IMG/VR virus record: IMGVR_UViG_2728369553_000006
Length of the DNA: 5,128 bases
Direction: 5' to 3' (one strand)
Source: a virus
Taxonomy: Duplodnaviria; Heunggongvirae; Uroviricota; Caudoviricetes
Made by a program: the position numbers and the translations under genes. Under the pieces are notes generated by a model that did no database searches, had not been told where the DNA came from, and was given only the letters and a program-made list of their open reading frames with translations. The stretch's first letter is position 1; every line of letters begins with the position of its first letter. Of this stretch, positions 215 through 5,128 are shown piece after piece.

Positions 215-762
215 CATGCCTCCATCGCTTTATCAGGTTTGTCGGTGTTACTGCCCTGACCGTTCTCTCTGTGACGATGCCCGTTATAGGCAAGCCGCAT
301 CGCTGACATGGTGGTGCCGCTGGAGTCGCACAGGTCTTTCACCTGTCCGGTCACTTCCAGGTCCATTTCAAAACGAGCCTTAGGCGCATTGCGAAACGTG
401 ATCGTTTTACCTGCACCATCCACCACGATCCCCGCCCGGGTCAGCGTCACGGACTGCCCCTGATCGTCATAGACAGCCACCTCACCCGTCTGCAGCCCTT
501 TCAGGCGGTAGCGTCGGTCCGACACCGTAACAACCACCGCATGAGAACGGTCACCATCCGGAAACAACACCACCGCTTCCGCACCGCTGTTTGCCCTTGC
601 GGTAAAACCGTAGGGTTCAAGATGTTCAACCCCGGCTTTGGGTTCACCGGCAATCAGGGACACATCCACGGTCTGACATTTCGTGGCGGCACTGATGCTT
701 TTCACCACCGCCCGCCCAATCAGGCCGAGGAGTTGTCGCTGTATGGTTTCAATCGCCTTCAT
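214..762 (-). CDS. Phage baseplate assembly/spike protein, gpV-like (Mu gp45-type)
   Basis: 182-aa ORF from the track with a Gly/Val-rich beta-type sequence (…VVVTVSDRRYRLKGLQTGEVAVYDDQGQSVTLTRAGIVVDGAGKTITF…) typical of gpV-type spike proteins. It is coupled at both ends by ATGA overlaps (760-764 and 212-216) and lies between the hub and gp46-like genes as in Mu. Confidence 0.7.
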   Translation of the reverse strand: MKAIETIQRQLLGLIGRAVVKSISAATKCQTVDVSLIAGEPKAGVEHLEPYGFTARANSGAEAVVLFPDGDRSHAVVVTVSDRRYRLKGLQTGEVAVYDDQGQSVTLTRAGIVVDGAGKTITFRNAPKARFEMDLEVTGQVKDLCDSSGTTMSAMRLAYNGHRHRENGQGSNTDKPDKAMEA

Positions 763-1909
763 CAGAACGGGTCCTCCTGTACTCTGGTTTTTTTCTTTTT
801 CCGCGCGCCGGGGGCTTCGGGTTCAGGCAGATAAGCATCAGGTGGGCCGACACGGATTTCCGTCAGGGTGCCATTCTGGTCCTGAGTAAACGTGACTTCC
901 GAGACAAGCAGTTCGGTATTGTCGAAACCACAGACCGGATCGAAGACAATCACCCGCTGGTTGGGCTGCCACAGCGTACCGTTACCCTGTCGCCAGCCCT
1001 GCACCACATAGGTGGTTTCATCCGTCCGCGCCGCCCGTTGNNNNNNNNNNNNNNNNNNNNNNNNNNNNNNNNNNNNNNNNNNNNNNNNNNNNNNNNNNNN
1101 NNNNNNNNNNNNNNNNNNNNNNNNNNGCCTGCCCCCGTAGCCTGCCCTGTCTGCCTGATATACATCGGACGGTAACGGGCAATAAATGCATCCTCTGTGC
1201 GGGCCCGCAGCGCGGTGGTGGTGGCCTCACCGAAATCATCGTCGTTTCCGGCACGCTGCCCCGCCACCTGGTAAACTGAAAACCGCTCCCGGATACTCTT
1301 CTCCGTATCACAGGAAAGGATGTTTTCCCCAAGTACCAGCGCGGTATGTGCCCGCGTTGAGCCAATACCACCAATCACCAGCCTGCCGTGCGGGTCGTCA
1401 TAAGCCAGCGCCTGCTGCTGACCGAGTATTTTGTTGATCACCTCGATCACCGTTTCACCGTGATCAGGCTGGACATCCGGAATAACACCCGACGGCGCAT
1501 CGCTGTTCACCACCTCAATGCCGAAAGGCGCAGCAAGCGCCTGCGCAATCTGTACCAGCGATCGTCCGTTAAACTGTGTCGGTTCGGCTGCACAGTCAAT
1601 CAGGTCAGCAGTCAGACTACGTCCGGCAATACCGGTGCTGACCGAACGGGCATCGTAACGAACGGGGGTCGCCTCCACCCAGCCGGTGATCACCAGCTCA
1701 TCACCAATCAGCACTTCCACTTTTGAACCATTTTTAATGCGCGGCTGAAGCGTGGTGATACCCTCATCTCCCGGCCACTGGCGGGTGATCTCCACGCTGA
1801 AATCCNNNNNNNNNNNNNNNNNNNNNNNNNNNNNNNNNNNNNNNNNNNNNNNNNNNNNNNNNNNNNNNNNNNNNNNNNNNNNNNNNNNNNNNNNNNNNNN
1901 NNNNNNCAT
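762..1909 (-). CDS. Baseplate hub protein (Mu gp44 / P2 gpD 'late control D' family), interrupted by two N gaps; exact sequence and length uncertain
   Basis: ATG at 1909-1907 followed by an N run, then a long protein-like reading (DFSVEITRQWPGDEGITTLQPRIKNGSKVEVLIGDELVITGWVEA…RYRPMYIRQTGQATGAG) down to the second N run. After 1041-1126 the protein-like frame is the one of track ORF 762..1007 (…VIVFDPVCGFDNTELLVSEVTFTQDQNGTLTEIRVGPPDAYLPEPEAPGARKKKKTRVQEDPF), ending with a stop at 762-764. Total span of about 1.15 kb (~380 aa) is in the range I recall for Mu gp44. Confidence 0.6.
1041..1126. other. Run of 86 N (assembly gap or masked sequence) inside the hub gene
   Basis: Literal n characters in the sequence. 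The protein-like reading frame differs on the two sides, so the N length is not the true length modulo 3. Confidence 0.95.
1806..1906. other. Run of 101 N (assembly gap or masked sequence) covering the N-terminal ~34 codons of the hub gene
   Basis: Literal n characters. The hub frame continues in phase across it, so its length may be approximately correct. Confidence 0.95.
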
Positions 1910-3234
1910 TGCACTGGCACCTTCAGAGGGATTACCGGCACAAAGCCGGGATGCGTAATGGCATTACGCCGGATAATGTCCGCGTCACGCGCCGCGTTAT
2001 CAAACCAGGTCGCCGCCAGCACCAGCGCGGGTAAAACCTCATCCGGCGTGCGCTGAATGATCCGAGCAGACTGTTCAAGGCGCGTGTTGATATCCGCATT
2101 CAGATCTGCTTTCACCCGGCGCAGAGCCAGAAACAGCGCATCACTGGTTGTACGGGACAACTCCTTATCAATTGCCGTATTCAGTGTGTCGCGAATGTCG
2201 GTCAGTTCTTCCCACGTTGGCAGGTCAACCGTGTTTTTCACCGCCGGTGCATTGTTCAGCACCGGATGCGTGACGGCAGGCCAGCCGGAGCTCTGCGCGG
2301 GTGTTGTTGACTGCCCCACTGCGGCATTCTGCATCACCGCAGAAGTTGTTGGCGCAGGCAATCGGGTAACGGCATACGCCGCTTCGCTGATTGCAGTCGT
2401 ACGAAGGGTGCTGGCAACCATGTTACGCTGCTGCGTCGCTGTGGCGGTGGTTTTACTGTCCGTTTTCCAGACGCCGCGCGGTTGCAAATCGCTGCCGAGG
2501 CTGACACCAGAAAGCGTTTTGATCATGGTGACCAGGTCGCTGGCGTTACCATAAAGGCGTTTCCCGGTACGCCACATTTTCTGCACCTGCTCAACGAAAT
2601 TTTTGCCTGACGATGGCGGCGGCAGAAGTACCGAGATATCCCCCTGCAACAGCCTGGCGGCATCCGATACGGCAGAATCCACCACTTTCATCGCATCAGA
2701 AACATACCCCAGCATTATGCTGGCATTACCGATAACGTCGTTCTGCACGAAATCCGCCACACCATCGATACTGAAACCGCTGAAGCTGTCACTGATGCAG
2801 TCATCCAGTGCAGAACAGGATGACATCAGCGTCTGCGCCGTCGCCGCACCTGATGTGGGGTAAGAGAGTTCTCCTGCTTCGACAAACTTCAGGTCAAAGC
2901 GGACAATACGCCCTTCACTTTTCGATGTGCTGACCCGAACTTCCCCGTCAACACAGACTTTCAGCTCACCATATGTCGGGTGGACAAGCGTGCCGGGACC
3001 TGGTTTATTCAGCGCTTCAATCAGGCGATCGCGCTGGTCAAAGCAGTCATCTCCCACCACATAAGCCGTGATGGACGGGCGAAAAGTGATTTTCCCCAGG
3101 TCTTCGGTATAGGGTTTGTCGCGGTTCGGGTATTCATGTGTTTCCACACGGCGACCGGTTCCCGCACTTTCTTCTTCAACCTTAAACGGCACGCCGCGAA
3201 ATGACGCGTCCTGAAGCCTGTCTTTCCACGTCAT
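1906..3234 (-). CDS. DNA circularization protein N homolog (Mu gp43-like), ~442 aa
   Basis: N-terminus MTWKDRLQDASFRGVPFKVEEESAGTGRRVETHEYPNRDKPYTEDLG… matches what I recall of the conserved N-terminal domain of Mu protein N. Good SD (GGAG at 3240-3243, 5-nt spacer) before ATG 3234-3232. It is directly followed by the hub gene as in Mu. The in-frame codon at 1908-1906 is T-G-N (third base masked) and overlaps the hub ATG at 1909-1907, which I infer is a TGA stop in an ATGA coupling. The track's extension to 1708 reads through the N run and gives an implausible tail, so I end the gene at 1906. Confidence 0.7.
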
Positions 3235-3239
3235 ATATA

Positions 3240-3243
3240 CTCC
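3240..3243 (-). promoter_or_regulatory. Shine-Dalgarno sequence (GGAG) for the N-homolog gene
   Basis: Minus strand reads …ttttCGGAGtatatATG; GGAG lies 5 nt before the start codon. Confidence 0.55.
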
Positions 3244-3244
3244 G

Positions 3245-3276
3245 AAAATTAAAAAGCCACCTATTAGAAGGTGGCC
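3245..3276 (-). terminator. Rho-independent terminator downstream of the 176-aa moron ORF
   Basis: Plus strand 3256-3262 gccacct and 3269-3275 aggtggc form a 7-bp GC-rich stem with a 6-nt loop. On the minus strand the stem is followed immediately by TTTTTAATTTT (plus 3245-3255). It sits ~20 nt after the moron stop (3296-3298) and ends right at the RBS of the N gene. Confidence 0.6.
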
Positions 3277-3295
3277 TTGTAATGAATTTTATTAA

Positions 3296-3826
3296 TTAGC
3301 GAGTCAGAAACAACGAATCTTTATACTTTTGCTGTTGTTCATTTAAATACTTAGCTGTTTCATCGCTGGCAAATGGAAATATTACCGTATTTTTAGGCAT
3401 GGTAATTTCTTTTTTGTCCAGCGTCAGAGTAAACATAGGAACATACTGAGCAGAGTAACGCACCGCAGAAACGAGCTCTAGTTTAGACTCTTCAATAACA
3501 CTTAAATTATCCAGGCTAACTTTCTCTTCATCTTTTTTCTTTGACGCATTTAAAGTTTTTATTACTTTATTTAATTTCTCCTGAAAATCCTCCTTAAAGT
3601 TTTCAGGATTGCCGTCGACAACAAGAATCTGTTCACCCTGATTATCTGGAAAAATAATCTTTGCACTTATCAATTTATTTTCTTTATAAACATCACCAAG
3701 TTTTATGGCTCCTCCAGATAACTGAATAATATGTTCATCTTTAAAGGAGATGTTGCCAGAGATTATGAGAGATGAAAAAATAGCCGCTGCTCCAAGAATT
3801 ACACTTGCTGTGATATAGCCTTTCAT
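3296..3826 (-). CDS. Hypothetical protein, 176 aa, with N-terminal hydrophobic signal/anchor segment; AT-rich moron (cargo) gene of unknown function
   Basis: Intact ORF (ATG 3826-3824, TAA 3296-3298) with no competing ORF on either strand. N-terminus MKGYITASVILGAAAIFSSLIISGNISFK has a ~19-residue hydrophobic stretch; the rest is Lys/Glu/Asp/Asn-rich. Weak SD (AGGCG) upstream. Hand counts on sample lines give ~25-35% G+C here versus ~60%+ in the flanking tail genes. It has its own promoter-like sequence and terminator. I do not recognise the family. Confidence 0.7.
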   Translation of the reverse strand: MKGYITASVILGAAAIFSSLIISGNISFKDEHIIQLSGGAIKLGDVYKENKLISAKIIFPDNQGEQILVVDGNPENFKEDFQEKLNKVIKTLNASKKKDEEKVSLDNLSVIEESKLELVSAVRYSAQYVPMFTLTLDKKEITMPKNTVIFPFASDETAKYLNEQQQKYKDSLFLTR

Positions 3827-3861
3827 TTTTCGCCTATTAACATTTTTCTAAATGTGCATTA

Positions 3862-3889
3862 ATTCTATCACTCTATTTATGACTTACAA
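3862..3889 (-). promoter_or_regulatory. Candidate sigma70-type promoter for the moron ORF
   Basis: Minus strand reads TTGTAA (plus 3884-3889), a 16-nt spacer, then TAGAAT (plus 3862-3867), about 35 nt upstream of the ATG at 3826, within the AT-rich intergenic region after the tape-measure stop. Found by eye; -35 match is weak (4/6), -10 is 5/6. Confidence 0.3.
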
Positions 3890-3917
3890 CCAGCAATACC
3901 TGTGAGGGGAATCCTGG

Positions 3918-5128
3918 CTACCAAAATCGGGTATAGCCAACATCGTGATTTATATCAATGCCACTGGAGCGTGTTTCCGTAACCCGCATACCTGGTGGCA
4001 TATTTATAAATGATACCTTGATCTCACCATCAACTTTTGGCGCGGTAGCTTTATTAATCATGAAGGGATTCGGACCTGTGGCACCGGAGGCGTTGTTTGC
4101 CTGAGCCGGATCCACCTCCGGATAAGGAGTGTATCCCCGTGGCGGTATTCCCGTCCCATAAGCATCATAAGCACCCGCGCCCCACTGCGCCGAGTTAATG
4201 GCATCGACCGTGTCACCGGAACTGTCGGTAAACCATTCAATAATCGGCTTCAGCTTATCCCACATATCCTGAAACCACTTAACAACCGGTCCCCAGTTAT
4301 TGATCACCATCCCCAGCGGCGACCAGGCAAAAACCTTCTTCAGAAGTTCCCAGCCAGCCTCAAAATAAGGACTAATGGTTTCCCAGAGCTTCTTAAAATA
4401 AGGTCCGACAACATCCCAGTTAGTGATAATTAATCCCGCAGCCAGGGCAATCGCCGTCGCAATCATGCCAATCGGCGTCATCGACATGATCCTGCTGACG
4501 ATACTGATGGCACTGCCCACGCCCATCAATCCCAGTTTCAGAATCGCAAGACCGGCAGCAAGCCCGACGACGCCGCGAATAACCCGGGGATTTTCATCCG
4601 CAAACTTCGTGAATTTTTCCCCTAACTCCCCCAGCCATTGCGTGATATTTTTGACGTCACCAGAAAATGCGCCGCCAATAGCCGCAAGGCCGTTAGTTGC
4701 GGTCCCCGTCATTGCCTCCCACAGGTTGGACAGCGTACCAAGCTGGGCCTGAACACGTTTATTCAGGCTGGCCTGTTTATTCATCTTCTGCTGGATCTGA
4801 TCGTAACCATCCTTTCCTTTATCGATCAGAGCATTGACCACCTGAAGGGTTTCGGCATCATCACCAAATATTGCCTTAAGTACACCGGTTCGCTTAACGT
4901 CGGTCAGTTTTCGCAGCTTTGCCAGTTGCCTGAACATGTTATCAAGACCGCCAAAACTCCCTTTGCCGTCAGTAAAATCGAGCTGTACCCCGAGTTTCTG
5001 GCGGGCCATAACTTTATTAACGTCCCTGATTTTCTTAACGCTTAATCCGGACTGGATAACTTTTCGCAGGGCATTACCTGCCGACTCCCCGTTCATCCCC
5101 ATCTGATCCATCATGACGCTGATGGGGG
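3918..5128 (-). CDS. Tail tape measure protein, C-terminal ~400 aa (5' end of gene lies beyond the right edge of the window)
   Basis: Frame is open from the window edge (…PISVMMDQMG…) to TAG at 3918-3920. It contains a long Gly/Ala/Ile-rich hydrophobic segment (RVIRGVVGLAAGLAILKLGLMGVGSAISIVSRIMSMTPIGMIATAIALAAGLIITNW), followed by Trp residues at ~11-residue spacing (W233, W244, W255, W264, W274…), and an N-proximal charged, helix-like region. It lies upstream of the N-homolog gene as the tape measure does in Mu. Confidence 0.75.
   Translation of the reverse strand, partial: PISVMMDQMGMNGESAGNALRKVIQSGLSVKKIRDVNKVMARQKLGVQLDFTDGKGSFGGLDNMFRQLAKLRKLTDVKRTGVLKAIFGDDAETLQVVNALIDKGKDGYDQIQQKMNKQASLNKRVQAQLGTLSNLWEAMTGTATNGLAAIGGAFSGDVKNITQWLGELGEKFTKFADENPRVIRGVVGLAAGLAILKLGLMGVGSAISIVSRIMSMTPIGMIATAIALAAGLIITNWDVVGPYFKKLWETISPYFEAGWELLKKVFAWSPLGMVINNWGPVVKWFQDMWDKLKPIIEWFTDSSGDTVDAINSAQWGAGAYDAYGTGIPPRGYTPYPEVDPAQANNASGATGPNPFMINKATAPKVDGEIKVSFINMPPGMRVTETRSSGIDINHDVGYTRFW

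Follow-up and report, generated by a model that had tools for sequence, protein, structure and literature searches.

A G/C-rich hairpin followed by a U-run, placed immediately upstream of the N gene, is likely to be a Rho-independent terminator that lies within the one late operon of a lambdoid prophage whose tail is of the Mu type, and that would be overridden by the antitermination protein Q. The window (the whole 5,128-nt stretch of viral DNA that was analysed) has all of its genes on the minus strand. Its unmasked segments, three in number, all match exactly a prophage of E. coli ECONIH4 (locus L107), and a prophage of E. coli AMSHJX01 (L003) matches the window segments near-exactly; the L003 copy is integrated next to icd, at the e14 site. 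The flanks of the junction under study are ~91–92% identical to those of the Shigella phages SfI, SfII, and SfV, lambdoid phages whose heads resemble that of HK97 and whose contractile tails resemble that of Mu. The window prophage belongs to the SfV/SfII/ST64B group, which combines lambda-like regulation with a Mu-like contractile tail.

The gene order of L003 and L107, in which all genes point the same way, begins with RusA, KilA-N, DUF968, an antitermination protein, holin/lysin, HNH, terminase, portal, protease, and capsid, and continues with connectors, sheath, tube, chaperone, tape measure, a 176-aa gene, N, P, gp45, gp46, a J-like gene, and the tail fibre. According to the annotation tables of both loci, the lysis, head, and tail genes form a single co-oriented string with no other promoter-sized gaps. 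The window covers the 3′ part of the tail tape-measure gene (3918–5128, minus strand; stop codon TAG at 3920–3918), which exceeds the window and is annotated in the exact-match genomes; the N or DNA-circularisation gene (Mu gp43 homologue; 1906–3234, minus strand), identified by annotation and by PF07157 DNA_circ_N (E = 8.4e-34); and the baseplate hub gene P (Mu gp44 homologue; 762–1909, minus strand), identified by comparison with L003 and L107. Both masked runs of the window lie inside P, with the 101 N at 1806–1906 standing for 89 nt, and the 86 N at 1041–1126 for 30 nt. Because the masked runs alter length, coordinates and reading frames across them are unreliable, and ORFs of 508 aa and 319 aa in the mechanical list were dismissed as artefacts of reading through the masked letters. 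P and gp45 overlap as ATGA (762–764), as do N and P, and at the gp45/gp46 boundary (~214) stop and start overlap by one shared base in L003 coordinates; these overlaps suggest translational coupling of the baseplate genes. The start of N, unlike those of the coupled baseplate genes, is uncoupled and placed after the terminator.

The terminator stem-loop AAGGCCACCU-UCUAAU-AGGUGGCUUU (3253–3278, minus strand) was recovered by folding, by a consensus scan, and by a hairpin-plus-T-tail score. Its 5′ arm AAGGCCACCU spans 3278–3269, the 6-nt loop UCUAAU spans 3268–3263, and the 3′ arm AGGUGGCUUU spans 3262–3253; the stem has 10 pairs, including one G·U, with seven in the G/C-rich core (3275–3256). 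The U-run UUUUUAAUUUU (3245–3255, minus strand; tail score 4.34) lies directly 3′ of this core, and pairing with the stem base is possible for the three U at its start. On the upstream side, the stem starts 17 nt 3′ of the stop codon of a 176-aa ORF on the same strand (3298–3296); on the downstream side, a single nucleotide (C3244) separates the U-run from the Shine–Dalgarno sequence GGAG of N (3240–3243, minus strand), which has a 5-nt spacer to the start codon (ATG, 3234–3232), so that 18 nt lie between stem and ATG. Stem, loop, U-run, and placement past a co-oriented stop codon are all those of an intrinsic terminator. The original prediction of a strong intrinsic terminator at 3245–3276, with a T-tract ending within a few nucleotides of the GGAG of the N homologue, therefore holds: the anatomy is canonical, the coordinates are right, the U-run extends to 3245 with GGAG at 3243–3240, and this is the only positive-scoring site in the window.

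Folding, proposed as a check on the site, gave a favourable energy of −15.0 kcal/mol for the hairpin alone and −17.7 kcal/mol for a 76-nt terminator region (z = −2.77; an equally good fold in one of 200 shuffles). The centroid structure of this region consists of the hairpin alone and leaves GGAG unpaired. With the hairpin-plus-T-tail score, a home-made one in the style of d'Aubenton-Carafa whose absolute thresholds are approximate, and with stems trimmed to the last G–C pair, the studied site reaches d = 19.5 and is the only one with a positive value anywhere in the window, both strands included; this value was reached in two of 200 whole-window shuffles and in none of 500 local shuffles. The terminator appears unidirectional, having a poor T-tail on the complementary strand. 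The same score places the SfII-type hairpin below threshold and is blind to the compound SKA5-type hairpin (−21 kcal/mol). The stem escaped an inverted-repeat finder that required exact seeds of 9 nt, its perfect core being only 7 bp. When the window was scanned in full against Rfam (E ≤ 1), nothing was returned beyond a sub-threshold Phe_leader match over the hairpin (3247–3329, minus strand; 25 bits, E = 0.58, gathering score 55), and this identity was rejected as almost certainly due to chance.

The probability that the structure is a chance inverted repeat with no function is next to nil. Simple terminator-like patterns are indeed common, the consensus scan of the window having returned 10 matches against 5.1 expected by chance, but the studied site ranks first among them, alone has a positive score, is intergenic, and is co-oriented with its neighbours. 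The comparative data, in which the position is kept across many genera while the stem shows compensatory changes, effectively refute the chance reading.

These data come from ~200 related loci in which the tape-measure/N junction was compared, the E. coli/Shigella set comprising 80 viral contigs. A hairpin and T-run recur 17–25 nt before the ATG of N, beside a conserved (C)CGGAG, both in loci that carry an insert and in loci that do not, in Shigella, Yersinia, Pantoea, Erwinia, Serratia, Buttiauxella, Atlantibacter, Edwardsiella, Leclercia, and Salmonella ST64B. The common backbone stem is (A)CCCRC-UYCG-GYGGG(U), with an A–U/G–C swap. Across a 12-sequence stem alignment, 87% of cells are paired and four pairs are changed on both sides, a covariation equalled in none of 500 shuffles and by no slid register. 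In Pantoea-type loci, whose N is ~52% identical to that of the window and whose gaps are mostly 35–75 nt, a positive-scoring site ends ≤60 nt from the ATG of N in 78 of 80 cases, the 80 loci being related rather than independent events; the background elsewhere on the same strand is 0.023 positive-scoring sites per kb. The window stem (GCCACCU/AGGUGGC, with its 6-nt loop) is unlike the backbone stem but is identically positioned relative to the N ribosome-binding site. ST64B (L209) has a weaker hairpin and T-run, ACCUGC-UCCG-GCAGGU UUUUCUUAU, at 11888–11922 of NC_004313, where sb16 and sb17 meet.

The terminator follows an inserted gene of the kind known as a moron, a class defined by a promoter and a terminator belonging to the element itself, through which it is expressed while the prophage is repressed (PMC3594210). 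This gene (3296–3826, minus strand; 176 aa) was recognised by its ORF, its low GC content, and its absence from SfII, SfV, and SfI. GC content is ~30–37% across 3300–3900 (~35% for the gene), vs. 52–60% in the flanks, and the tape-measure/N junction measures 683 nt in the window vs. 63 nt in SfII, SfV, SfI, and many E. coli and Shigella prophages. Extra DNA, deviant base composition, and a terminator past the gene are among the marks of a moron in the sense of Juhala and Hendrix. The encoded protein has an N-terminal hydrophobic segment and belongs to phrog_5485, a family of unknown function; a Pfam scan of the protein gave no match, and its mediocre AlphaFold model (pLDDT 63) gave no meaningful fold match in comparison with the PDB. 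Its homologues, all unnamed, are restricted to E. coli and Leclercia/Lelliottia (52–58% identity for the latter), and the Leclercia-type genes occupy the same tape-measure/N junction.

Between the tape-measure stop codon and the 176-aa ORF lies an A/T-rich spacer of 91 nt, in which the consensus scan identified a putative sigma-70 promoter (3862–3889, minus strand; 9/12): TTGTAA, a 16-nt spacer, and TGnTAGAAT with an extended −10 element. Matches of 9/12 are no commoner in the window than expected by chance. The TTGTAA/TAGAAT pair aligns with TTGCAA/CGCAAT and TGGCTA/CATAAT upstream of the Leclercia-type homologues, which lends the promoter weak support. The Leclercia-type homologous morons are followed by a backbone-type stem; the difference from the window stem past homologous genes indicates that stem sequences turn over while the position is kept. 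As moron-less relatives also carry a terminator at this position, it may have been resident at the junction rather than imported with the moron.

The same junction has received other genes. Among the 80 E. coli/Shigella viral contigs, junction classes comprise one of ~63 nt with no insert; one of 683 nt with the window gene (phrog_5485); one of 684 nt, represented by phage SKA5, with an unrelated protein that looks secreted (phrog_8976); one of 589 nt with an antisense membrane protein carrying a tRNA_anti-like OB domain; and one of 496 nt with a bacterial PH-domain protein. Two more kinds of insert, an antisense transmembrane protein and a lipoprotein-like gene, were seen in other genera. Over the loci compared for this purpose (L002, L007–L018, L026, L089, L102–L106, and L207), the phrog_8976 cassette is found in SKA5, Atlantibacter, and Pantoea L016; the bPH_1 domain protein in L026 and L012; the antisense tRNA_anti-like OB-fold membrane protein in L089 and L007; the antisense transmembrane protein in L008 and L010; and the lipoprotein-like gene in Serratia L018. 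As judged from these sequence comparisons, the tape-measure/N junction is an insertion hotspot with at least five unrelated cassettes. Two cassette families recur there across different genera. Gene 16 of Pantoea phage AH07, a phage with the backbone stem, is also located at the tape-measure/N junction, outside the family comparison. STMMW_20121, a gene expressed in ST64B lysogens (PMC7067206), was considered as a further occupant and set aside, its locus tag being far from those of tail assembly (STMMW_19861–19871), which suggests that it lies elsewhere.

According to the original prediction, the terminator insulates the moron transcript from the tail genes. Ending the 176-aa transcript is a reasonable role, because the terminator follows a low-GC inserted gene, and this part of the claim has support; but moron-less relatives likewise carry a terminator at precisely this site, with gaps of 63 nt in SfII and S. 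flexneri, 56 nt in Yersinia, and 33 nt in ST64B. If ending moron transcripts were its only task, there would be no reason for phages without a moron to keep it almost universally, and this counts against our main account. Exceptions to this retention are found as well: L011, which is moron-less with a 24-nt gap, has no terminator, and phages with antisense inserts have no forward terminator upstream of N, so that the terminator appears dispensable for N expression. In L089 (~2419–2440), a perfect G/C-rich hairpin (e.g., CAGGGAGGGCCGCCCCTCCCTG) lies directly past the tape-measure stop codon, as likewise in L007, L008, and L010, with a clear forward T-run only in L010; the post-tape-measure hairpin of these antisense-insert loci presumably serves to end the antisense transcript.

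A strong terminator at this position raises the matter of how the baseplate genes are reached. The original prediction reasoned that the phage must antiterminate, read through, or restart transcription from a downstream promoter, and antitermination is the one of these three ways that the genomes support, through a Q gene and two further strong terminators upstream. In both L107 and L003, an antitermination gene is annotated directly upstream of the co-oriented lysis, head, and tail genes, and the L003 protein is identified as Q by PF03589 Antiterm (E = 3.7e-53) and by phrog_127 ("Q-like"). The late strand of L107 has three strong terminator-like sites, of which the first is 109 nt past the stop codon of Q (d = 32), the second separates the lysis genes from HNH/terminase (d = 34), and the third is the studied site (19.5); in L003, such sites lie 107 nt past Q (d = 39), before the holin gene (d = 27), at the studied site, and after the last tail gene (d = 19). 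Every structural gene is therefore located beyond at least two strong terminators, and late transcription must already resist terminators.

A terminator placed ~100 nt past Q corresponds to the classical PR′–tR′ layout of lambdoid phages, where polymerase at the late promoter is modified by Q. Between Q and the first terminator, a promoter-like TTG(C/T)AT, 17 nt, and TAAGAT were recognised by eye, below the threshold of the scan (TTGCAT in L107), and the TTG(C/T)AT–TAAGAT arrangement and the terminator are conserved between L107 (5377–5520) and L003 (4109–4250). On sequence grounds, the promoter-like site and terminator past Q resemble PR′–tR′, which would give a short (~65-nt) transcript without Q. 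Different small genes occupy the interval between Q and the lysis genes in L003 (4324–5650) and L107 (5563–5898), those of L003 being closed by the pre-holin terminator; this variable region resembles a second moron site. In the late operons of lambdoid phages, Q enables polymerase to transcribe through terminators (PMC3851460; PMC8022706), and Q-dependent read-through at the studied site is accordingly probable.

Mu-type phages offer a comparison of two clades rather than of independent events. In Mu, the gap between the tape-measure gene (gp42) and N is 4 nt with no terminator, likewise in 16 of 17 Mu-type loci, and none of the 17 has a terminator at this junction. The near-constant association of the terminator with the Q group, and never with the Mu-type loci, fits a scenario in which only processive antitermination allows a phage to tolerate terminators inside its operons.

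In the proposed mechanism, polymerase that starts in the lysogen from the moron promoter, or from a stray promoter in the tape-measure gene, would carry no Q. Such polymerase would transcribe the 176-aa gene and halt at the hairpin and U-run, presumably leaving the baseplate genes silent. Upon induction, the late promoter immediately past the Q gene would be the place where Q loads on RNA polymerase, and the Q-modified polymerase would read through the post-Q terminator, the pre-terminase terminator, and the studied terminator in turn. N and the translationally coupled baseplate genes could then be expressed from that single late transcript, with a downstream promoter unneeded. The terminator itself would be resident at the tape-measure/N junction, with unrelated genes repeatedly inserted upstream of it.

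The alternative that the original prediction had raised for the downstream genes, namely that the terminator is efficient and polar and that transcription of the baseplate genes starts further downstream, at an activator-dependent promoter of their own, as with Pp of Mu, is highly improbable. In its favour, the tail module resembles that of Mu, where P is served by a late promoter of its own, the Mu late promoters Plys, PI, PP, and Pmom being C-dependent. Mu N and P overlap by 8 nt, so a promoter can sit inside coding sequence; because of this Mu overlap, the missing intergenic gap between N and P in the window does not by itself exclude a promoter. However, N lies between the terminator and P, so that a promoter before P could not serve N, and the 18 nt from stem to ATG leave no room for a promoter and leader ahead of N itself. 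The masked run at 1806–1906, which had been proposed to hold or adjoin such a promoter upstream of the hub gene, was recovered from the exact-match genome and proved to be codons 2–31 of P, with the N stop and P start overlapping as ATGA at 1909–1906; a scan of the late strand around the N/P junction found no sigma-70-like site. SfII, ST64B, and AH07 are lambdoid, being annotated with cI, cro, and Q, and no Mor/C activator is listed in the annotations of these complete genomes or of the L003 and L107 parts. Together with the absence of the terminator from all of the Mu-type loci, these points lead us to abandon the proposed promoter upstream of the hub gene in favour of Q-mediated read-through.

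Other roles for the terminator take account of its retention in moron-less phages. The roles of intra-operon terminators have been described as "not known," with two ideas advanced, namely partial termination that lowers downstream mRNA, or the blocking of spurious transcription that has not been antiterminated (PMC8022706). As a late-operon attenuator, the site would halt part of the lytic polymerases and keep baseplate mRNA below that of the head, sheath, tube, and tape-measure genes, so that it would be kept for dosage rather than for the moron; this is unlikely. Its occurrence at the same position in moron-less relatives (the 78 Pantoea-type loci, SfII, Yersinia, and ST64B) is in its favour, as is its being the only strong intergenic terminator within the string of structural genes, and partial termination is among the roles considered in the literature. 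Polymerase modified by Q is nevertheless expected to ignore intrinsic terminators such as this one, and phages with antisense inserts, L011, and Mu manage without it. The boundary does not split high-copy from low-copy products either, because the tape-measure protein encoded upstream is itself required in low copy number. A function in RNA stability or processing, by which the hairpin in read-through RNA would, after cleavage in the A/U-rich tract, shield the mRNA upstream of it against 3′ exonucleases and the U-rich tract would keep the N ribosome-binding site open, is decidedly improbable. It would account for the fixed position relative to the Shine–Dalgarno sequence, for the UUUUUUAU...CCGGAG context conserved across genera, for the unpaired GGAG in the centroid fold, and for the G/C-rich hairpin that is found past the tape-measure stop codon even in antisense-insert variants lacking a forward T-run before N. 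It is purely inferential, though, and the simplest reading of a hairpin with a U-run is a terminator; only a terminator, and not a mere block to exonucleases, would need the T-run to be conserved. We regard as possible, but doubtful, a broader account in which the terminator is a conserved late-operon element of SfV/ST64B-type phages and not a moron accessory, kept through tens of percent of protein divergence at a constant distance from the N ribosome-binding site, moron-less phages included. It would either set the ratio or stability of tail-shaft vs. baseplate mRNA, or act as a firewall against non-antiterminated transcription into the baseplate genes, and would as a side effect provide a safe landing site that has repeatedly captured unrelated lysogen-expressed genes.

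The preferred reading, a terminator inside a Q-controlled late operon, has parallels in known systems. The moron prototype, the gene 15 element of HK97, lies between the tail assembly chaperone and tape-measure genes (PMC3594210). The window arrangement shares with it extra DNA between adjacent conserved tail genes, deviant GC content, a promoter-like site, and a Rho-independent terminator, as well as a small protein with a hydrophobic N-terminus and a setting in a Q-controlled late operon (PMC3594210). Unlike the HK97 element, the window moron is on the other side of the tape-measure gene and belongs to an unrelated protein family, and its terminator appears to be owned by the junction rather than by the cassette. 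The closest counterpart is in SfII (KC736978.1), where the depositors annotated a "putative rho-independent terminator" at 11928–11966, between the tape-measure and N genes, the only intergenic one annotated among the structural genes of that phage. SfII and the window agree in junction, distance to the N start, T-run/CGGAG/ATATG context, and phage group, with flanks ~91% identical; they differ in the stem (CCCAC-UCCG-GUGGG in SfII vs. GCCACCU-UCUAAU-AGGUGGC in the window), in the insert, which SfII lacks, and in the score, by which the SfII hairpin is weaker. The N start given in the SfII (L208) GenBank record, 11934, falls inside the annotated terminator, 42 nt upstream of a conserved MTWKDRL start with GGAG, and is probably mis-called. 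The P22-like phage L likewise has a predicted intrinsic terminator within a late operon served by a single Q-type antiterminated promoter, and its authors describe such terminators as not unique (PMC8022706); phage L is of a different type, and its terminator is at the end of the procapsid module. With Mu, the window phage shares homologous tail genes (sheath, tube, tape measure, N, P, and gp45–48) but not regulation, which is lambdoid in the window phage, whereas Mu is without Q; a Mu-style reading of the region should therefore be dropped.

The arrangement is thus a textbook one, a moron and its terminator in a Q-antiterminated late operon, and a positional homologue had already been annotated in SfII. 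A terminator that is maintained at this junction even in phages without a moron may make the site a preferred landing place for lysogen-expressed genes. RNA-seq of ST64B induction is public (PMC7067206), and the junction, conserved in hundreds of prophages, would be a convenient site at which to test the role of an intra-operon terminator.
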